The position numbers and the translations under genes are program-made. A model generated the notes under the pieces. That model did no database searches, was not told the DNA's origin, and worked only from the letters and a program-made list of their open reading frames with translations. Shown here piece after piece: positions 7,074 through 20,079 of a stretch of DNA of 64,000 nucleotides; the first letter of the stretch is position 1; each line of letters opens with the position of its first letter. Source of the DNA: a bacterium (GTDB lineage: Bacteria > UBA10199 > 2-02-FULL-50-16 > JAJFLM01); assembly GCA_965216315.1 (NCBI GenBank), contig CBDCFN010000016.1, forward strand, positions 2,272,001 to 2,336,000, written 5' to 3'.

Positions 7074-7853
7074 CTATTCGGGCATTTCCTCGACCGACCC
7101 ATCCGTATTCATCATTGCCCCGTCTTTTGCGATACGCTCCATGAGTTCGTGTAGTGGAACGGCATGACTCCGACGGGATTCAAACTTTCGCTCTTCATGC
7201 TTTTCATCCGTCGCCGCACCTTCTTCCGCGTCGTCATCCTCCCGCATTTCCTTTGCTTGCATCGGCATCAATCCAGCCAGATGACCGTAACTGGATTTAT
7301 TTAAAGTTGTGAATGAAGTATCCGTCTCTGCTTCGGTATTCGGAAGCGCGACCCAACGATCGTCGTCGAGAGCCAGACCAAGCTGTCCCCAGCTTAGCGG
7401 ACGTTCGCTCGCCTCGACATGAAGCTGTTCACTCAAACCCTCTTCCGTCGTGAAAAGCAAAGGGATCTGCTCCTCGCTGCTGAGACTCAAGGAGAAATGA
7501 TAATACTGCCCGGTCTCAACCCAAAAACTAAAACGACACTCGAAATCGACCGAACCGATGACGACGGTTTGAGGACCCTGCTGCACCCAAATCTGGCGTC
7601 CGACGCAGTCGCCGTCGCCCGCGAATTCCGCTTCTGCCTGCCACTCGGACTGCGGCGGCACCATGCCGATGATCTGGCGATAGGCGGACGGTGGATTACC
7701 GGCCTCGGTCCCGCCTTGAAACTGGCTTAGCGGCGGCTGCGTGCCGCAGGCAAAGCCGCCCAGGGCCTGAATGAACAGGCCCACCACGATGACGATGCAT
7801 TTTCGTATGGTGTATTCTCCCGATAAGATATTTTGCTTAAGTGAGAACATCAC
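7074..7853 (-). CDS. Putative lipoprotein, GGTEAGNP-motif family; start uncertain, possibly ATA at 7808
   Basis: Hydrophobic stretch ending GFAC, GGTEAGNP, C-x22-C-x-F domain shared with four other lipoproteins. Confidence 0.7.
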   Translation of the reverse strand: MMFSLKQNILSGEYTIRKCIVIVVGLFIQALGGFACGTQPPLSQFQGGTEAGNPPSAYRQIIGMVPPQSEWQAEAEFAGDGDCVGRQIWVQQGPQTVVIGSVDFECRFSFWVETGQYYHFSLSLSSEEQIPLLFTTEEGLSEQLHVEASERPLSWGQLGLALDDDRWVALPNTEAETDTSFTTLNKSSYGHLAGLMPMQAKEMREDDDAEEGAATDEKHEERKFESRRSHAVPLHELMERIAKDGAMMNTDGSVEEMPE

Positions 7854-7858
7854 CTAAG

Positions 7859-7920
7859 TTATCGAAAGAATAAAGGAAATGTTGTATACAGCGGAAAATA
7901 TCTGTTGACTCAAGTCAACA
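7859..7920 (-). promoter_or_regulatory. Sigma-28-like promoter (CAAC-N15-TCGATAA) plus GTTGAC-N4-GTCAAC box
   Basis: ttatcga 7859-7865, gttg 7881-7884, tgttgactcaagtcaaca 7903-7920. Confidence 0.65.
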
Positions 7921-7929
7921 GCTGCGCCT

Positions 7930-8754
7930 TTAGCGCAGCTGTTCGTGCAGATCTTCCGGATCTTCGATCGGCTGCTGCGCGCCACCGATCTCATTCAATG
8001 ATTTGATGACCTTAATAACGCTGTCTCTTTTGATCATCATTTTATCATCACCCTGTTCTTCTTCCTGCTCCGTAATACCGTAAGTTCCGGTGAACGGATT
8101 AGTCACCTCTTCGGCGCCTTGATTCTCCTCGGTGCCGCCAAAGCCTTCTGCAGGACCGGCCTGTTCCGTCTCGTCTTCACCTTCGCCCTCAGGATAATAG
8201 GGACCGCCGGTCCCTTCACTGGACCCGCCCGCCCGGGCGGCATAACTATCGCCTTGCTGGTAGAAGGAGATCTTGCCAATATCGTGGGTCACTCCGCGGC
8301 CTTCGAAACGGACATGAGGCGTATCATCATCGCCAAAGCCAACTCGAACCCGGGTGCCGTCAGGCATTTCAATATCAAACATATACTTGTCGCCAGACCG
8401 CAATCCAGGGATCGTAAAATCACAACTCGGCGTTACAGACGCACTTGTCTCTAAATGAGTGTGCACGTTCGTGGCAATAACCTTAACGCCCGCGCAGGCG
8501 TTCGGTAAATTCGGATCAAAACCGGGAATCTCCTGCATACGAGGAACGTTACCGGTCACCGAAACGATGCCGGGGTTTTCGGCCTGCCCGGGATCTTGAT
8601 CAGTCACCGAGGGACCGTTCCTGGGGTTACCCGCTTCGGTACCGCCTCGAAGTCCGGGATTTCCTAAACCGCCACCACTACCCCCAGTATTGCAAGCAGT
8701 GACCGTTATCGCCACGACAGCCAAGGTTAAAACTAAATTAAATGCTTTCTTCAT
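7930..8754 (-). CDS. Lipoprotein, GGTEAGNP-motif family
   Basis: MKKAFNLVLTLAVVAITVTAC lipobox (ATG 8754); GGLGNP and GGTEAGNP; C-x23-C-x-F...DIG domain; directly downstream of a TIGR02147-like gene. Confidence 0.8.
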   Translation of the reverse strand: MKKAFNLVLTLAVVAITVTACNTGGSGGGLGNPGLRGGTEAGNPRNGPSVTDQDPGQAENPGIVSVTGNVPRMQEIPGFDPNLPNACAGVKVIATNVHTHLETSASVTPSCDFTIPGLRSGDKYMFDIEMPDGTRVRVGFGDDDTPHVRFEGRGVTHDIGKISFYQQGDSYAARAGGSSEGTGGPYYPEGEGEDETEQAGPAEGFGGTEENQGAEEVTNPFTGTYGITEQEEEQGDDKMMIKRDSVIKVIKSLNEIGGAQQPIEDPEDLHEQLR

Positions 8755-8779
8755 GATGTAACACCCTTTCGTACGCTTC

Positions 8780-9628
8780 TTACGCTCTTTCATGTTTTGT
8801 CACCGGCAGCATCTGGATACTGAGCAAGACAACATCATCTGGATTGTCATCGTCAGCAACCAACTGGAGGATTTCGCGTCGAAACTCCTGAATGCGTTTT
8901 TTGATCTGCGGGACTCTTTCTTTAATAATTCCTAAAGTCAGAGCACTGACATCCCGTTCTTTTTGTTCCACCTCGGGAAGCTGCCCTTTTAATAAATCAA
9001 ACAAACTCTGGTGATAATTTAAAAGCACGAGGGAATCGGCTTCGGCACCGCTCGTTACAAGCGGTGTCGCCTGTTTCCACTTATTGGTCACCGCATCACG
9101 CTCAATAAAATGAAGTCGCGCCAACAATTCGACGGACTTTTTTACTTGCGCGGGAGACACTTCCGGCTGCAATCTTTTAGCCAACCACTCGATTGAACCG
9201 TCAAAATCCTTAGAAATGATCAACTCGCGCACAACCGGATGATACCAGGTTGAAAAATACTCGTAACGATCCTGCGCAAGTGGCTCTAACTGACTGTAGC
9301 GTTGAGAACGAATCAACTTCTTATAGTAAGCGTTTTTTTCCGCGTGCGTTTTCGCCTGATTAAAGAAGACGAGATTACGAAAGTGCTCGCGCTCCGGACG
9401 CTCCAGTTTGATTCCTTTAATGAATTTCTTGAGGCTTTCCTCAGTCAGGTTACGTTCGCCATCCATGACGAGTTTAAAAATATTGGAGGATTTAAAGCCG
9501 GCTTGCCGGGAAAAGACCCGATATGAAAACCCGTACCGCTCTTTGGCCGATTCATACCAATCGCGCAAGAAGGCCCGGTAATCCATATAATCGAATACTG
9601 AGACGTTATTGTTGCCGTTGTTACCCAT
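8780..9628 (-). CDS. TIGR02147/DUF4423-like putative DNA-binding regulator, copy 1
   Basis: Family motifs F.Y.DYR.FL.DWY, SYR.FS..AGFKS.N...LV..G.RNL, F..LV.FNQA, YFS.WYH.V.REL, LL.YH, RD.SALTLG. Confidence 0.88.
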   Translation of the reverse strand: MGNNGNNNVSVFDYMDYRAFLRDWYESAKERYGFSYRVFSRQAGFKSSNIFKLVMDGERNLTEESLKKFIKGIKLERPEREHFRNLVFFNQAKTHAEKNAYYKKLIRSQRYSQLEPLAQDRYEYFSTWYHPVVRELIISKDFDGSIEWLAKRLQPEVSPAQVKKSVELLARLHFIERDAVTNKWKQATPLVTSGAEADSLVLLNYHQSLFDLLKGQLPEVEQKERDVSALTLGIIKERVPQIKKRIQEFRREILQLVADDDNPDDVVLLSIQMLPVTKHERA

Positions 9629-9676
9629 GTCACTTACCTATACGCTATTATACCCTGTATACTGCCTGTTCTCTAG

Positions 9677-9704: not shown

Positions 9705-9825
9705 CTCATTTTGACGAAATTTATCAATTTTTTGTATGCAGCAATCCCTATCTAACTATCTGTTATTATTAATTTTTTAATTTCTATCTTATTTATGCCC
9801 TTTTTTTTGAGTCAACAGGCCCCCC

Positions 9826-9888
9826 TGTTGACCCAGGTCAACAGATAATCCTGACGAAACGCAACGAAGACTCGAACGAATCCGATAA
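9826..9888 (+). promoter_or_regulatory. GTTGAC-N4-GTCAAC box plus sigma-28-like promoter (GCAAC-N16-CCGATAA)
   Basis: tgttgacccaggtcaaca 9826-9843; caac 9862-9865; ccgataa 9882-9888. Confidence 0.7.
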
Positions 9889-9931
9889 GTCTCAACGAAA
9901 CGAACCGCAATTTCTGAGCATGGAGGCAACA

Positions 9932-10522
9932 ATGGGTGAACCAAGCACACTTCTTAATATCTATAATAGCACCAAAGACTATATTTGGAACTTAGCCGCT
10001 GCGCAGCCCGTGGAAACGGATAGCGATGTCGCTTCCGGCGCTGATGACACGGCGCAAACTCATGCGAATACGGATTTACTAGACAAGACCGTCACCCCCT
10101 GCAAAAAGGCAACTCCTTCGGTCGTTCGCCTTCATCAAGCCCCGATGCGCCCCGGCCAGCGGGACGATGGGGATACCGAATTCACCAATTTCATGAAACG
10201 ACCCGGTTTCGGGCACGACGAACGCGTCGTCAGAGAGCTTGGTTATGCGTTTGACAAGTCGAAACTACCGGACACGATTACAGTCCGCATGCAAATATCG
10301 TCCAATGGAAGTATTGCGGTCGCCGAACTCCCGGAAGACTACAAACCACCGAAGGGCATTTCACGGGAGGAAATGAACCACATCATTCATCGAGCGCTCG
10401 TGCCTTTTAGCGTGCCTAGCTATGCAGTGCCGGAAGCATCGCGAACGAATCCATGCGCGTGGATCACGCACACCATATCGCTGAATCCGACACCGGATCC
10501 GGCATCAGTACCTAACAGTTAA
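9932..10522 (+). CDS. Hypothetical protein, no signal peptide; weak resemblance to a TonB-C-terminal-like fold
   Basis: GGAGG RBS before ATG 9932; followed by a terminator; TITVRMQISSNGSI segment. Confidence 0.65.
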   Translation: MGEPSTLLNIYNSTKDYIWNLAAAQPVETDSDVASGADDTAQTHANTDLLDKTVTPCKKATPSVVRLHQAPMRPGQRDDGDTEFTNFMKRPGFGHDERVVRELGYAFDKSKLPDTITVRMQISSNGSIAVAELPEDYKPPKGISREEMNHIIHRALVPFSVPSYAVPEASRTNPCAWITHTISLNPTPDPASVPNS

Positions 10523-10556
10523 AAACAGCTTACACATACGCACCCATGACACTCCG

Positions 10557-10597
10557 AAAAAGGTCATCCTCTTCACCCCTTGAGGATGGCTTTTTTT
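10557..10597 (+). terminator. Rho-independent terminator, possibly bidirectional
   Basis: aaaaaggtcatcctc-loop-gaggatggcttttttt. Confidence 0.75.
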
Positions 10598-10675
10598 CGT
10601 TCACTCGTGTTGACTGACGTTAACAGATAAACTTTTTGCAACGCAACAGTGTGTCGGTAGGTACCGATAACTAAT

Positions 10676-10758
10676 ATACAACAAGTTATTCAACTTACAC
10701 ATACGCACCCATGACACTCCAAAAAGGTCATCCCTCTCCCCGGGGGGATGACCTTTTT
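10676..10758 (+). ncRNA. Candidate ~80-nt small RNA
   Basis: Lies between a promoter motif (10644-10670) and a terminator hairpin (10721-10758) with no complete + strand ORF. Confidence 0.5.
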
Positions 10759-10890
10759 ACTTTTAAAGGTGTTAACTTACGTCAACAGATAAAGCCTTCG
10801 TTAACGAATATTAAACAACATCGTTTGCGAATAACCGATAATACTACAGGTAGGCTAACTGATAACTCGTTTCAGAAAGGTTGGGATAAC

Positions 10891-11238
10891 ATGTCGTATC
10901 AAATTCATACCGTCCGTCCGGGAGACACGTTGGCAAGCATTGCGCGGCACTACGGCGTCACCATGCAGCAACTCCGGAAGCTGAATGTTCATCTCACGCA
11001 ATCGAGTGGCTCGATTCCTCGTACGAGTGCAGGAAGTAAGATTTACGTCGGTGACGAAGTCCGTATTAAAGAGCTCCTTGAGTGCGGCCGCAACGTCGGG
11101 CCTTTTCAGTTGGGTTGTCGTTATGCGTCGAGTGACACATTAAAACTGGAGTTTGGTATCAAGGGCGACGTAAGCACACAACCCCTTAATTCCTCAATCA
11201 TGGTTGGCGCCAGAATCACTTTTTCCGGGGGCAACTAA
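10891..11238 (+). CDS. LysM peptidoglycan-binding domain protein
   Basis: HTVRPGDTLASIARHYGVTMQQLRKLN...KIYVGDEVRI; ATG 10891 lies downstream of promoter 10816-10841. Confidence 0.85.
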   Translation: MSYQIHTVRPGDTLASIARHYGVTMQQLRKLNVHLTQSSGSIPRTSAGSKIYVGDEVRIKELLECGRNVGPFQLGCRYASSDTLKLEFGIKGDVSTQPLNSSIMVGARITFSGGN

Positions 11239-11247
11239 ATAGCTGAA

Positions 11248-12435
11248 CTAGGGTTGCGCCGTAAACGAAGTCGTTGCGGCCTTGGTCTTACCGCCCGTCC
11301 CGCAGTCGATTTCATCGACCTTGACCTCGTATTCGGTCCCGGCGGCAAAGGGGTCAACGCCGTGCTCGCACGCGATCTCATCCGCCCCCAGCTGATGGTT
11401 GGTGCAATCGACGTCGATCGCGAGTCCTTTGGGCTGAATAATCAGCGCGCTGGGAAAATCGATCAGGCCAAGATGATATTTGCAGCCCAAGCGAACAATC
11501 ACCTGTTCCGAGAGGCCTACGCCCGTCTGACCGTTGAAGGGATAAATTCTCAAGACCGGAACCATCCCCCCCAAATCTTCCTCACGACAAGGTGAGCCGG
11601 GATCATTGTCATCGATAAAACCATTGAGGTCACAATCCCGCTCCATTTGATCAAGTACGCCGTCGTTATCATCGTCCGTGTCGATCGCATCCGAGTCCCC
11701 ATCCTCGTCGCGGTCCGTATAGATCTCCGGATTGTGTTCCGGAATCGCGTCAAGACCCTCGATCTGCACCCGACCTAAGTCAACGGGTTTCTCGGCCGGG
11801 AGCCCGACGTAAAACTCATTTTGGCGGATAAAGGCGCGCTGCTTACTGAGATGTTCCATCTTCACGACCAGGCGCGCGACGAGGTCACCGGTCTTTTTTC
11901 GGAACTCCAGCATATAAGCGCGCTTGGTCGGCACAGCGAGCTTAAAAGAGCAATCCGATTCAATTCTCGTAGTGAGCTCTTGTCGTGCAGAGTTGATCGC
12001 GGTCACGGTCGCGGCCGGACAGACCTTGACTACCGCAATTTTAGTCGCCTGCTCGGCCCATTCCGTCCGGATGTTTACCAGACTCATCTGCATGAGCGGC
12101 CTGATATCCTTATACGGCAATTCGCGCACCGGGCTCTCGATCAGCTGCCGTTCCTCTTCCACGGGCTGCAGCTGACCGATGATCAGGCGTAGCGGAGCCG
12201 GATCCTGATCGTAAGGTGTTCCCGGCCGTGGCCCTGGTCCCGGATCAGTCGGCGTCGCTTCCGGATTCCCGAAATCCGTTCCCCCGAACTCTGGGTTCCC
12301 GAAATCCGTTCCGCTGATCGTTTGCTCGGTATCGACAATGTCCGGTGGTGCGGTATCCGCTCCCTGCGGCTGGACGCACGCGGCAATAAAAAAGACGAGC
12401 GCAATAGTACTGAGCAACCGGCTCCAGCAGGTCAT
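11248..12435 (-). CDS. Lipoprotein with two GTDFGNP motifs, Asp-rich Ca-binding (TSP3-like) repeats and C-terminal Ig-like domain
   Basis: IAAC lipobox; SGTDFGNP and GGTDFGNP; C-x22-C-x-F..DLG; DRDEDGDSDAIDTDDDNDGVLD; ATGA overlap with regulator copy 2. Confidence 0.85.
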   Translation of the reverse strand: MTCWSRLLSTIALVFFIAACVQPQGADTAPPDIVDTEQTISGTDFGNPEFGGTDFGNPEATPTDPGPGPRPGTPYDQDPAPLRLIIGQLQPVEEERQLIESPVRELPYKDIRPLMQMSLVNIRTEWAEQATKIAVVKVCPAATVTAINSARQELTTRIESDCSFKLAVPTKRAYMLEFRKKTGDLVARLVVKMEHLSKQRAFIRQNEFYVGLPAEKPVDLGRVQIEGLDAIPEHNPEIYTDRDEDGDSDAIDTDDDNDGVLDQMERDCDLNGFIDDNDPGSPCREEDLGGMVPVLRIYPFNGQTGVGLSEQVIVRLGCKYHLGLIDFPSALIIQPKGLAIDVDCTNHQLGADEIACEHGVDPFAAGTEYEVKVDEIDCGTGGKTKAATTSFTAQP

Positions 12436-13292
12436 GATCCACCTGCCTCGTCCGTCGGCTCTTCGACCATCGGGAATAAATAGATATTCAACTGCAAGAC
12501 CTCCTCCGTCTCCGTATCATCGGCGACCAGCTTGAGGATGTCCTGTCGAAATTTTTCGATTTTCTTCTTTATCTGGTGCAGGCGGGGCTTGGTTACTCCC
12601 AAGGTCAACGCCCCCATATAGCGCCTCGGTGCCGGAACGGCCCCAAGCAGGTGGGGGAGAAGCTTCATCATAGTCTTATGATAATTGAAAAGCTCAACGG
12701 ATTCAATAGCGGTCCCGGGGGCGAGCACGGAAGAGCTCTGTTCCCAGCGTCCTGACGGGCTGCGATGGATCAATTCGAGCTTTTCCAAGAGCTCGAGCGA
12801 GGCTTCGACCTGCTCCAATTTGATCCGTTTTCCGAGCCGCGTCATCAACCATTCCGGGGTTCCATCATAGTCCTTGGCCGTGATGAGCTCGCGAATGACC
12901 GCATGGTACCAAGCCGAACAATATTCATGCTGATGGGCTCTAATCGGTTGTCTTTGTTGGTATTTTTTCGAACGCAGCAACAAGTTGTAGTAACGATCCT
13001 CTTCTTCATGGGTCTTGGCCTGGTTATACGCGACCAGATTGCTAAAAAAATCGGCGTCCTGGGCCGCCAGCTTCAAGGCCTTAACCGTCTTCGGCAAGGT
13101 ATCCGCAGTTAAGTTCCGTTTTCCCTGAATGACCAACATGATGTAGTTGGAGGACTTGAACCCGGCGCGTTCCGCAAATCTTCGATAGGACATGGAGGCC
13201 CGGGTCTTTTTCTTCGCCTCAAACCAGTCGCGCAAATAGGTACGATAATCGTTGTAATCGTAGAGATTTATGTCCTCTGCCGGCTCCGACAC
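12432..13292 (-). CDS. TIGR02147/DUF4423-like regulator, copy 2
   Basis: Same motif set as 8780..9628; GTG start. Confidence 0.88.
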   Translation of the reverse strand: MSEPAEDINLYDYNDYRTYLRDWFEAKKKTRASMSYRRFAERAGFKSSNYIMLVIQGKRNLTADTLPKTVKALKLAAQDADFFSNLVAYNQAKTHEEEDRYYNLLLRSKKYQQRQPIRAHQHEYCSAWYHAVIRELITAKDYDGTPEWLMTRLGKRIKLEQVEASLELLEKLELIHRSPSGRWEQSSSVLAPGTAIESVELFNYHKTMMKLLPHLLGAVPAPRRYMGALTLGVTKPRLHQIKKKIEKFRQDILKLVADDTETEEVLQLNIYLFPMVEEPTDEAGGS

Positions 13293-15272: not shown

Positions 15273-16121
15273 TTAAGCCTTGGGGCTCGTTAACGGAAAC
15301 ATGTGAATATTGACCTGAACGACCTCTTCCGGGGTTTCATCTGCGGAGACGAATTTGAGGATGTCCTGACGAAATTTTTGGACTTTTTTCTTGAGTTGCT
15401 CCAGCCTTTCTTTACGCACCCCGAGGGTCAATGCACTGATATCGCGTCGTTCTCCCGGTACGGTATCAAGAACCTCCTTGGTCAACTCGAGCATATTATA
15501 ATGATATGCAAATAATTCGATCGAGCGAACATCCGCCCCCGTCGAAACTAAACTATGGCTCTGTTTCCACCGACCTTTTTTATTGCGCTTGGCGAAGCCC
15601 AAGGTTTCTAATAATTCGAGAGAATGCGTCACATCGGCAACAGATACTTTCGGAAAAATCCGTTCCGCAATCCATTCAGCAGTCCCGTCATATTCTTTTG
15701 CCGTAATGAGTTCGCGAATGACGGCATGGTACCAACGAGAGCAATATTCATATTGGTGCGTGCGTATCGGTTCTAACTGGTTATACTTTCTCGACCGCAG
15801 CATGCGTTGATAATAACGCTCTTTGTCCCGCTGATGTTCCTCCTGCGTATAATGAACCAGGTTTTCAAAAAATTCCGTCTCCTGCTTGTTCAGCTTGAGC
15901 GCCTTGGCCACTTTAGGAATGCTTTCTTGGCTCAAATTTCGCTTGCCCTGCAACACCATCATAATGAAATTCCAGGACTTGAGGCCGGCACGCTCCGAGA
16001 ACTTTCGATACGACATGCCCGCCCGGGTCTGTTTAGCAGCTTTGTACCAATCGTTTAGAAAATCACGATAATCTAGATAACTAAACGGGCTGACCTGATT
16101 GGCAATGCGTGACTGTGACAT
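15273..16121 (-). CDS. TIGR02147/DUF4423-like regulator, copy 3
   Basis: Same motif set as copies 1 and 2. Confidence 0.88.
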   Translation of the reverse strand: MSQSRIANQVSPFSYLDYRDFLNDWYKAAKQTRAGMSYRKFSERAGLKSWNFIMMVLQGKRNLSQESIPKVAKALKLNKQETEFFENLVHYTQEEHQRDKERYYQRMLRSRKYNQLEPIRTHQYEYCSRWYHAVIRELITAKEYDGTAEWIAERIFPKVSVADVTHSLELLETLGFAKRNKKGRWKQSHSLVSTGADVRSIELFAYHYNMLELTKEVLDTVPGERRDISALTLGVRKERLEQLKKKVQKFRQDILKFVSADETPEEVVQVNIHMFPLTSPKA

Positions 16122-17760: not shown

Positions 17761-19239
17761 TTATTGTCTCAACAGCGCACGGCGCCCAAACAACACGCCT
17801 AATGCTGCCAAGGCCATCACGAAGAGGCCGAGTGTATTTGCCGCGTGAGGCGTCGCGTTCAGGCTACAACCACCCGATGTCGCGAGTGATTCACTTTCTT
17901 CACCCGTTCCATCACCGACGATAACTTCTTCATTTTCCGCCGGATTCTCTTCCGCATCCTCTCCCTTATCCGCGTCTATGTTTATAAGTTCGCCTTCACA
18001 TTGATCATCACAACCGTCGCCATTTTCTTCATTCCCGTCGTCGCAGTCCTCTCCCTCATCCACAATACCATTGCCACAGAGACCTTTTTCGAAGGCCCCG
18101 ACATCCGAACTGACCCCAAGAGGCCTCGGAAAACCGCGCTGGTCTTCAGCCAGCTTGACAATGATGGCGGCATCAATAGCGAGGCTGCCGGCTCCAAGCG
18201 CATGTGTGCGGGTGTCTCCGCCGTTAAAAGCCAAGGCTTGCAACTTAAGATCGGCACTGTCGACTCCCGATTGATCCGTCGTTTCCGTAAGGTTACAGGT
18301 TCCGTCGACATCAATGTTGCCACCACCCGATGTAATCGTCCCGAGACCACCGGACGTATCGCAATTCGCGTCAACGCCGCCGGATCCGTCTACCTGTGCC
18401 AACAAACTATTATACAAATTCACTTCGCCATCACCGGCAACGAGATGAGCCGCTAGCAGGTCAGCACGATTATGATAGAAAGTGACATGCCAGAGATCCA
18501 CATCGTCCGCGAGACTCACCAGCCCGCCACCGGTCGGCGCCGTATTGTTACTGATCGTGACATTCACCAACTTGATGTTGCTAGAGCCCGTTCCAACGGC
18601 AACACCGCCACCAAAATCGGCAGCGCTATTGTCGCTGACCAAACAGCGCTCCATATCAAGCGTTCCGGTTCCTATCGCCAGACCGCCGCCAGCGTCGGCT
18701 TCATTGCCGATAAGCTCGACATCACGCAAAATAATATCACCGGATCCATCCGAATAGATTCCGGCACCGGGTTCCGTGGGGCTCGATCCACTCTGAATCG
18801 AGAGTCGCTCAAAAGTTACGTTCGCATTATTTAAAACGTGAAACACTCGACTGTGTTGACCACCACTGATAATCGGCAGAGGCAATTTCTTAAGCGGGAT
18901 AGCACCCGAACTCAAACTCGGGTCCCCTTGGATGATGACATCATCCGTGATATCAAAATCGCGCAGGCCATTCGCATCATCATCGACAAGCATCGTCTCA
19001 TCGATTCCATAAATGCCGTTGGCAATGATAATCGTATCTTCGCCGGGATTGCTATTCGCTAGATTAATCGCCGCACGCAAGGTGCATGACGTTCCGCCAC
19101 CGAGCATGAAGAAACAGATACCACCATCTTCCGTTCGATCCACGGTATAAGTCTCCGCGTGGACTTGAGCCGCCGCCAACATCGCGACAACCACCGCGCT
19201 AATAATTGAGAATTTTTTAATCGTTTCCAGTATACCCAT
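17761..19239 (-). CDS. CSLREA/choice-of-anchor Q surface protein with MYXO-CTERM-like sorting signal
   Basis: Signal peptide, CTLRAA, one Cys-rich repeat, C-terminal SGGCSL-linker-TM helix-RR. Confidence 0.88.
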   Translation of the reverse strand: MGILETIKKFSIISAVVVAMLAAAQVHAETYTVDRTEDGGICFFMLGGGTSCTLRAAINLANSNPGEDTIIIANGIYGIDETMLVDDDANGLRDFDITDDVIIQGDPSLSSGAIPLKKLPLPIISGGQHSRVFHVLNNANVTFERLSIQSGSSPTEPGAGIYSDGSGDIILRDVELIGNEADAGGGLAIGTGTLDMERCLVSDNSAADFGGGVAVGTGSSNIKLVNVTISNNTAPTGGGLVSLADDVDLWHVTFYHNRADLLAAHLVAGDGEVNLYNSLLAQVDGSGGVDANCDTSGGLGTITSGGGNIDVDGTCNLTETTDQSGVDSADLKLQALAFNGGDTRTHALGAGSLAIDAAIIVKLAEDQRGFPRPLGVSSDVGAFEKGLCGNGIVDEGEDCDDGNEENGDGCDDQCEGELINIDADKGEDAEENPAENEEVIVGDGTGEESESLATSGGCSLNATPHAANTLGLFVMALAALGVLFGRRALLRQ

Positions 19240-19492: not shown

Positions 19493-19513
19493 GGTGTGTC
19501 TCATGCGTATGGG

Positions 19514-20026
19514 TTAGGTGTTCACAAAAGGATTAACTACCTTTGGCGCTTTCGACGTGGCTGGTTTGTATGGTCCGCCGCGATAGACGAACGGACTCTG
19601 ATTCGCCCTCTTGTCGAGCGCGTCGATCTCGTCCGTCGAAAGGCGATGTTCCGCACAATAGTCATGAATCTGATCGGATAGCTGCCAATAATTACTGCGA
19701 TTTCCGGCCTTAATCTGACTGGCCGCTTGCTTCATCATCCCTTCCGCTTCGGCTTTGTAGAGCGCATGATTTTCCGTGCGTTCCAACGCAACGTTTACGG
19801 CACGTAATTTAACCGTTTGTACGTAACTCTCCGGCAAAAAAGAACCGAGTTCTTCCGCCCGAACGGCCAAATGATCCAAAGCCGCGTCGACAGTGACAAG
19901 ACTTTCAAACTGGCCGGCCTCAACAAGCTCAACCACGCGCGTCATATCTTCATGTAAACGCAGTTCCTGGCGATTCATCTGATTATAATTAATATTCGGT
20001 AATTTGTGTGTTGCTCGTATAGACAT
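19514..20026 (-). CDS. Hypothetical alpha-helical protein
   Basis: GGGGGAG RBS before ATG 20026; promoter upstream and terminator downstream. Confidence 0.7.
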   Translation of the reverse strand: MSIRATHKLPNINYNQMNRQELRLHEDMTRVVELVEAGQFESLVTVDAALDHLAVRAEELGSFLPESYVQTVKLRAVNVALERTENHALYKAEAEGMMKQAASQIKAGNRSNYWQLSDQIHDYCAEHRLSTDEIDALDKRANQSPFVYRGGPYKPATSKAPKVVNPFVNT

Positions 20027-20079
20027 TGGTCTCCCCCAATACACTTTGAGTTAATATTTTAATTCTCCAATGTCGCTTA

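Follow-up and report, generated by a model that had tools for sequence, protein, structure and literature searches.

The locus described here raises the question of why one block of 27 nucleotides (nt) should stand twice, without a single difference, directly before a transcription terminator. The two copies occupy positions 10529-10555 and 10694-10720 of the plus strand in a stretch of 64,000 nt, referred to below as the window, which is the segment 2272001-2336000 of contig C16 in a genome that is 98% complete. Positions without a prefix refer to the window and those marked C16 to the contig. The answer towards which we lean, with a little more confidence than doubt, is that the blocks belong to a lineage-specific pair of sibling base-pairing RNAs, one located in the 3' untranslated region (UTR) of a messenger RNA (mRNA) and the other a free-standing small RNA (sRNA), both under the same operator and the same sigma-28-like promoter, and that their common seed would occlude translation starts. 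The best-supported predicted targets are not the neighbouring regulators. They are two genes at other places in the chromosome, one for a membrane-protein paralog and one for a lipoprotein. The observations are of four kinds: the anatomy of the sequence, the selective conservation of the block, the predicted structure, and a complementarity to translation starts that goes beyond that of the controls.

The 27-mer, CTTACACATACGCACCCATGACACTCC, is rich in C and A and poor in G. Its reverse complement reads GGAG-TGTC-ATG-GGTG-CGT-ATG-TGTAAG, which corresponds to a ribosome-binding site and AUG twice in a row. A pattern search of the window allowing up to 3 mismatches finds the 27-mer two times, and none of 100 shuffled windows contains any match. 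When up to 7 substitutions are allowed in the whole 2.96-Mb genome, only the two copies and one chance match with 7 mismatches are found. A preliminary description of this DNA had reported an identical 27-mer before a terminator at two places, with a core whose reverse complement gives a ribosome-binding site and AUG; the sequence, the pattern search and the folds, each a hairpin with a T-run, agree with it on both points.

The first copy is located in the tail of the mRNA of an orphan protein gene (9932-10522, plus strand; no Pfam family). The ATG at 9932 stands behind GGAGG, the longest open reading frame (ORF) begins at 9920, and the TAA stop is at 10520-10522. Upstream of the gene are operator palindrome 1 (TGTTGAC-N4-GTCAACA-GATAA, 9826-9848, plus strand) and promoter P1, whose sigma-28-like -10 element CCGATAA (9882-9888, plus strand) has CAAC 16 nt upstream. 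Seed copy 1 (10529-10555, plus strand) begins 7 nt past the stop codon and ends at intrinsic terminator 1 (10556-10597, plus strand), for which a 16-bp stem and a U-run are predicted; the seed shares the terminator of the mRNA, which is the arrangement of a 3' UTR-derived sRNA. The RNA 10523-10597 has a predicted folding energy of -20.4 kcal/mol (z -3.95), with the 27-mer single-stranded. The 200-residue product of the gene has one weak homologue (27% identity, genome G074) among the 92 other genomes of the class. The gene for this homologue has the same promoter type, and there is neither a seed nor a terminator downstream of it. No homologues of the product were found in the assembled-genome contig collection.

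The second copy (10694-10720, plus strand) lies in a unit of its own. Operator palindrome 2 (TGTTGACTGACGTTAACA-GATAA, 10608-10630, plus strand) belongs to this free-standing gene and is followed by promoter P2 (10644-10670, plus strand), which consists of CAAC at 10644-10647, a 16-nt spacer and CCGATAA at 10664-10670, in accordance with the genome consensus xAAC-N15/16-CCGATAA. After CCGATAA there are only about 25 nt, then the 27-mer and then intrinsic terminator 2 (10721-10758, plus strand), with a predicted 17-bp stem, a CCCC loop and U5. The predicted sRNA has about 82 nt (10677-10758, plus strand), its 5' end being placed 6-8 nt past the -10 element and its 3' end at the U-run. The RNA 10677-10760 folds with -27.4 kcal/mol (z -5.9), and the seed is unpaired save for about 4 nt in a weak 5-bp stem. 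The sole plus-strand ORF that runs through copy 2 (10711-11238) has no Shine-Dalgarno sequence, crosses the terminator and the next operator, and merges into the frame of the LysM gene. Copy 2 is in this way a short non-coding unit with its own promoter and Rho-independent terminator. The assignment of copy 1 to the 3' UTR of the 9932 gene, and of copy 2 to a unit of about 80 nt with its own operator and promoter and no credible ORF, had already been proposed and holds in the sequence.

The locus is a tandem repeat with a module of 162-165 nt. When the two units of about 165 nt are aligned, the seed agrees in 27/27 positions and the operator in 21/24; the agreement is 10/34 from the operator to the -10 element, 5/10 from the terminator to the operator, and 3/6 just 5' of the seed. 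The value for the -10 element itself is 5/7 in an automatic alignment that is shifted there; CCGATAA is present in both units. The two terminators have the 5' arm in common and differ in their loops and 3' arms, and both are still fully paired. (MAFFT set the two stems one column out of register.) The identity of 27/27 in the seed as against 10/34 in the promoter spacer argues for selection on the seed, which is both conserved between the siblings and accessible in the predicted folds. Judged from the sequence, the pattern of divergence is that of an old duplication in which the seed, the structure of the terminator and the elements of the promoter have apparently been under purifying selection, and not that of a fresh copy.

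The seed was paired by RNAduplex with the region from -130 to +60 of 2653 ORF starts, taken from 2662 crude longest-ORF calls of which 9 were too near the contig ends. The mean over these start regions is -13.9 kcal/mol with a standard deviation of 3.5. The best of them belongs to a gene of 565 amino acid residues (C16:2161715-2163412, minus strand), about 119 kb from the sRNA, with -36.5 kcal/mol (z -6.4). All 27 nucleotides of the seed align with UGGAGGUGCUCAUGGGUGCGGUGUGUAUGG in this mRNA, with about 25 base pairs and, on the mRNA side, two bulges of a single base each, and the duplex spans GGAGG, both in-frame candidate AUGs and codons 2-6. The complementarity covers the 27-mer from end to end and does not continue into the flanks, which are unrelated; the block that pairs with the 565-residue gene start, nucleotides 1-27, is exactly the block conserved between the two copies. 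The second rank is held by a 226-residue lipoprotein gene (C16:1825329-1826009, minus strand) with -32.9 kcal/mol (z -5.4), and the third rank has -28.9. In the lipoprotein mRNA, GGUGCGU-AUG-UGUAAG provides 16 perfect base pairs across the AUG; the protein begins MCKARAVLIILLGLVSALWGC..., and its start is 9 nt behind a CAAC-N17-CCGATAA promoter. Both of the best targets carry the CCGATAA type of promoter. When the 84-nt RNA or the 98-nt tail of the mRNA is cofolded with the 5' ends predicted for the target mRNAs, the duplexes between seed and start form and the terminators are kept; the pairing brings a net -28 to -32 kcal/mol with the 565-residue gene and -26 to -27 with the lipoprotein gene.

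Several controls were compared with these values. The best values of 21 dinucleotide shuffles of the seed lie between -26.2 and -33.5 (mean -29.4, standard deviation 1.9), so that none reaches -36.5, and no shuffle has a second-best value of -32.9 or lower. A rough Gumbel extrapolation from the 21 shuffle values puts the chance of -36.5 at about 0.006. Natural 27-mers that precede other terminators give best z values of -3.6 to -5.5 (17 such blocks; an 18th overlapped this element). In addition, an ungapped scan recorded the best seed helix at every position of both strands of the whole genome, with the locus itself excluded. Its top match is the lipoprotein start, with 16 perfect pairs and -30.9 kcal/mol at C16:1825995-1826010. 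Start zones make up 4.7% of positions and contain 19 of the 118 ungapped matches at or below -20 (shuffle median about 5). The target complementarity is beyond chance by the RNAduplex controls, and the ungapped measure is weaker.

The 565-residue gene is the last of a tandem array of divergent paralogs with 370 to 901 residues and identities of 15-32%, in which hydrophobic segments can be recognized by eye. Its protein has no Pfam match, and the ESM Atlas scores, at most 0.81, are uninformative. CAAC-N15-CCGATAA is again the promoter, one for each paralog, and the palindrome upstream of it is of another kind, TTGCGAA...TTCGCAA (C16:2161500-2176000); this suggests that another regulator of the DUF4423 type may control the array. 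The start regions of six of the seven aligned genes are among the top 34 of 2653 (ranks 1, 6, 14, 16, 18 and 34), and the 608-residue paralog, with -15.0 kcal/mol, is outside the top ranks. In the leader of the 901-residue paralog, a segment of 93 nt contains three separate stretches complementary to the seed, one of them an exact GGAGUGUCAUGG over the ribosome-binding site and AUG. Members of the family were found in 10 class genomes out of 93, counting that of the window. A further feature is seen in the leader of the 656-residue paralog (minus strand, at about 7335-7365 of the segment C16:2161500-2176000), where a 5-codon upstream ORF, MGAPY, stands behind GGAG and its stop overlaps the ribosome-binding site of the main gene; the first 10 nt of this ORF (TCATGGGTGC) are the reverse complement of part of the seed.

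The control elements of the repeat recur outside it. Three plus-strand modules of one design, at 9826, 10608 and 10770, have in order TGTTGAC-N4-GTYAACA, GATAA, about 13-24 nt, CAAC, 15-16 nt and CCGATAA. The third of them, with operator palindrome 3 (10770-10792, plus strand) and CCGATAA at 10835-10841, drives the LysM gene 10891-11238. A fourth operator copy (7903-7925, minus strand) faces the opposite direction and has CGATAA 33 nt downstream; the gene that it drives, on the minus strand at 7074-7853, codes for 259 residues without a Pfam family. The four operators surround a regulator-lipoprotein gene pair at 7930-9628. They adjoin the gene for a DUF4423/TIGR02147 regulator (8780-9628, minus strand), and this regulator is probably the protein that binds them. 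About 12 good palindromes were counted genome-wide, most with CGATAA 33-43 nt downstream. A metagenome-assembled genome labelled Nitrospirales has a regulator with 55% identity, and no operator or sRNA-like unit was found within 1.5-kb flanks of it. At C16:109142-109340 (plus strand), a variant operator CGTTCAC-N4-GAGAACAGATAA is followed by CACAAC-N17-CGACAA, about 120 nt free of ORFs and a hairpin of GGGACGGGGC and GCCCCGTCCC; this unit is another candidate small RNA of a DUF4423 regulon.

The promoter type xAAC-N15/16-CCGATAA is present on about a hundred genes, examples in the window being 9882-9888, 10664-10670 and 10835-10841. CCGATAA occurs 108 times in 2647 upstream regions (15 of the 2662 ORF calls were too near a contig end), compared with 23-40 for seven permuted heptamers, and an xAAC signal lies 15-16 nt upstream of it. 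The same promoter stands 5' of homologous genes in other genomes of the class. The best match to the FliA family has 133.5 bits, below the family cut-off of 189.6, and no flagellin gene was found in the genome. It seems that this organism, which is not flagellate, has put a sigma-28-like factor to another use. The FliA-type promoters of the Bdellovibrio attack phase are given as TTAAG-N16-CCGATA and drive three sRNAs (PMC3627812). A genome-wide search for units with a CCGATAA promoter and a terminator and without an ORF gave six candidates, none related to the sRNA locus; the filter missed the sRNA locus too, owing to a spurious 175-residue ORF. Two identical 62-nt units at C16:2034479 and C16:2035770 (plus strand), 1.3 kb apart, each have a CCGATAA promoter on the 5' side and a weak terminator-like end.

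These elements can be combined into a mechanism. Two sibling regulatory RNAs would be transcribed from the plus strand, each with a 27-nt block as its single-stranded seed. One sibling would be the tail of the 9932-10522 mRNA, acting within the mRNA or once cut off from it. The other would be an RNA of about 80 nt from its own module of palindromic operator (probably bound by the DUF4423 protein), CAAC-N16-CCGATAA and terminator. The seed would pair across the translation start of distant mRNAs so that ribosome loading is blocked, and the duplex would then probably be degraded. Transcription, the ends of the RNAs, processing of the 3' UTR copy and repression of the named targets are the steps that we infer. 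An RNase E/G homologue is present in the genome. No Hfq or ProQ gene was found at its 98% completeness, and the long duplexes would therefore have to form without those chaperones. Long near-perfect duplexes fit a chaperone-independent action of the kind described for LhrC (PMC4132741).

Several points weigh against this interpretation and have to be kept in view. The 24-nt core of the seed, with up to 3 mismatches, was found in none of the 92 other class genomes; BLAST with the 1101-nt locus (9800-10900) gives 0 matches in 40 relatives; and an exact 18-mer of the seed searched in metagenome contigs gives 8 loci, all 8 of them chance matches with no common flanks or terminator. The value of -30.9 in the ungapped scan is roughly matched genome-wide by 3 of 40 dinucleotide shuffles (-33.2, -30.6 and -30.5), and within the start zones by 1 of 40. 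RNAduplex ignores accessibility and permits long internal loops, as in the match to the 901-residue paralog, and the gene starts used are the crude calls mentioned above. The paralog starts are homologous to one another, and their joint high ranks are one event, not six. The complementarity could also stem from descent of the seed from an inverted start region, with no present function; antisense copies of the paralog leaders or starts of relatives were searched for in their own genomes (G001 and G010), and only chance-level matches of 14-18 nt were found, the one match examined lying inside a coding region.

The same facts can be read in other ways. It is rather improbable, in our estimate, that the blocks are cis-acting elements with no target in trans, at which a protein bound to the 27 nt next to the terminator tunes termination, read-through or RNA stability. 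Transcripts from P1 or P2 could then run on through the adjoining unit and, in the end, reach the LysM gene; another effect could be greater stability of the 9932 mRNA. Such an element would be at home here, where both blocks abut a terminator that is followed by the next operator and promoter, where the repeated unit is the whole 162-165-nt module, and where no Hfq or ProQ was found for a classical sRNA pathway. However, the LysM gene has a complete operator and promoter of its own past terminator 2, the two terminators are strong and have good U-runs, and an anti-terminator fold with the seed is not predicted. A cis element also leaves the near-perfect complementarity to two distant starts, beyond the controls, unexplained. 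A similarly low probability is given to a non-functional relic, in which a tandem duplication copied an inverted fragment of a paralog 5' end, a recent short gene-conversion tract kept the blocks identical, and any transcript is noise. The tandem repeat itself, the resemblance of the reverse complement of the seed to the paralog start regions (GGAG..TCATGGGTGCG), and the lack of the element in every other genome searched are what a relic would lead one to expect. Short gene-conversion tracts without flanking homology are unusual, however, and the identity is 27/27 in the seed yet about 30-50% in the adjoining spacers. In both units, moreover, the fragment is antisense and falls exactly in the interval from promoter to terminator, both of which are intact, and the terminator arms have changed but stayed paired.

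The preliminary description had itself proposed sibling sRNAs that exert translational feedback on the DUF4423 regulators and the genes of their regulon, by way of start-codon matches of the acccatga type. Its sequence matches are correct: acccatgtcact at 9623-9634 agrees in 11 of 12 nt over the AUG of the regulator, and acccatga lies over the starts at 19239 and 32428; the seed also favours start regions in general. The part of the proposal that has gained support is pairing with translation starts. The targets that it named are not supported by the RNAduplex comparison with all start regions, where the outliers are the distant genes. The starts of the three DUF4423 regulators (8780-9628, 12432-13292 and 15273-16121) have -19.8, -12.3 and -11.5 kcal/mol and rank 134, 1718 and 1951 of 2653. 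Those at 19239 and 32428 have -16.1 (rank 646) and -19.3 (rank 171), that of the 9932 gene itself -16.7 (rank 537), and that of the LysM gene -10.5 (rank 2232). The 11/12 match consists of 7 bp, a mismatch and 4 bp, which is the background level, and short AUGGGU(G) matches of 7-9 bp are common at starts in this genome. With such low ranks and such common matches, feedback on the regulators is unsupported and we consider it very improbable. The other suggestion of that description was a minus-strand micro-ORF MGAYV (GGAG-N4-ATG GGT GCG TAT GTG TAA), translated from an antisense transcript. It has a good ribosome-binding site and start, the same in both copies, and is similar to the MGAPY ORF in the leader of the 656-residue paralog. 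However, it lies directly behind a terminator-like hairpin and T-run on the minus strand, which would halt incoming transcription, and that strand has no CCGATAA and one weak sigma-70-like match (9/12) beyond terminator 2; a translated peptide is very unlikely. A more far-reaching proposal, which is unlikely as a whole, extends the sibling-RNA reading. The seed would have been captured from an inverted paralog 5' end and would now act as a chaperone-independent trans-antisense "selector". When the DUF4423 regulon with the TGTTGAC-N4-GTCAACA operator is switched on, the mRNA tail and its twin would silence particular paralogs and a lipoprotein of other regulons that have the same sigma-28-like promoter type. 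The result would be mutual exclusion at the RNA level among the many paralogous DUF4423 regulons of the lineage, and other 3' UTRs, for example 19493-19513, would carry anti-start seeds of their own.

This segment, 19493-19513 on the minus strand, is a candidate third seed. It is a C/A-rich part of a 3' UTR, CCCATACGCATGAGACACACC, which follows the stop codon of the gene 19514-20044 and precedes the terminator of that gene; the presence there of cccatacgcatgagacacacc before a minus-strand terminator had been pointed out earlier and is correct as sequence. The minus-strand gene 19514-20044 has a CCGATAA promoter and ends with CCCAUACGCAUGAGACACACC directly before the terminator. The best start-region duplex of the third seed has -31.4 kcal/mol, and -33.9 with 4 more flanking nt. 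It is formed with GGUGUGUGUGCGU-AUG-GGU of a 436-residue gene whose product has a borderline match to the NAGPA domain. Of 22 shuffles of this seed none reaches -31.4, and their best values range from -24.4 to -29.8. The motif GTGCGTATG occurs 14 times in the genome; two of the occurrences are the sRNA loci, and 4 of the 12 others are on in-frame start codons. A wider family of CATAC(C)GCA seeds before terminators was also considered and was rejected: 5 of 74 sites have a terminator-like site, compared with 2.9-8.8% for eight controls, and there is no enrichment.

Searches outside the genome give the following picture. Rfam 15 reports three transfer RNAs and nothing else in the window at the gathering threshold. 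At the locus itself, with E values up to 10, the best scores are at most 21 bits against thresholds of 34.8-100, so that the Rfam search suggested for this RNA assigns no family. One contig (run X4) is identical to the window over 10470-10900. Another of 221 nt (run X5) is identical over 10460-10622 and has 58 unlike letters before this segment. A contig from a sequencing run of another organism (X6) agrees with the operator, promoter and leader of the 9932 gene over 87 nt (9806-9892) with 3 differences and then diverges. This contig hints that a fairly close relative with a related locus may exist outside the genome collections searched.

It is useful to place the sibling-RNA reading beside known systems. 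In enterobacteria, OmrA and OmrB are adjacent sibling sRNAs under the sites of one regulator, with an identical pairing region and conserved terminators, the rest having diverged; they act at the translation starts of mRNAs for envelope proteins. The locus described here is similar in that adjacent copies stand under the same regulator, the seed is identical, the other parts have diverged and action at start regions is predicted. There is no sequence relation, however; one sibling here is the 3' UTR of an mRNA, no Hfq was found, and the seed is directly 5' of the terminator and not at the 5' end of the RNA.

MicL is a sigma-E-dependent sRNA from the 3' end of an mRNA that represses the lipoprotein Lpp (PMC4102768). 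It has in common with the present case an alternative-sigma promoter, an sRNA overlapping the 3' part of a gene, a lipoprotein start as target and membership in the same envelope programme. MicL is Hfq-dependent and conserved in enterics, whereas the sigma type here is that of CCGATAA, no chaperone was found and the lipoprotein target is a predicted one. NarS (PMC7038943) offers the likeness of a seed in an mRNA 3' UTR, the shared terminator of the mRNA and cross-talk between mRNAs, with an RNase E/G homologue present here; the present locus differs in that a free-standing duplicate, with a promoter to itself, accompanies the 3' UTR copy, and the processing here is presumed. LhrC1-5 of Listeria monocytogenes is a multicopy sRNA under one envelope-related regulator that binds the start region of a surface-protein mRNA, blocks its translation and does not require Hfq (PMC4132741). 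The likeness consists of multiple copies, a single regulator, pairing with start regions and no need for Hfq, and the sites in LhrC are pyrimidine-rich. However, LhrC has three short redundant CU-rich sites, while the present seed is one C/A-rich block of 27 nt with duplexes of 16-25 bp, and the phylum is different with no homology. The attack-phase sRNAs of Bdellovibrio bacteriovorus (PMC3627812) have the same -10 element CCGATA and belong to a global non-flagellar programme that includes small RNAs. The -35 element is TTAAG there and xAAC here, and the likeness is one of promoter and programme.

Sibling sRNAs, 3' UTR sRNAs and occlusion of start sites are all well known, and the locus is probably an orphan example of a familiar principle. 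What is particular to it is that one seed has two carriers under the same operator, an mRNA tail and a stand-alone gene, in a genome without detected Hfq or ProQ, where about a hundred genes use a sigma-28-type promoter that seems to have been repurposed. The prediction is open to a direct reporter test in a heterologous host, for which the organism need not be cultured. If the proposal is true, the large and uncharacterised DUF4423/TIGR02147 regulator family would gain a post-transcriptional layer. For a deep Bdellovibrio-like lineage that is uncultured, and in which the searches made found no RNA regulators described, it would also provide a first candidate pair of sRNA and target.

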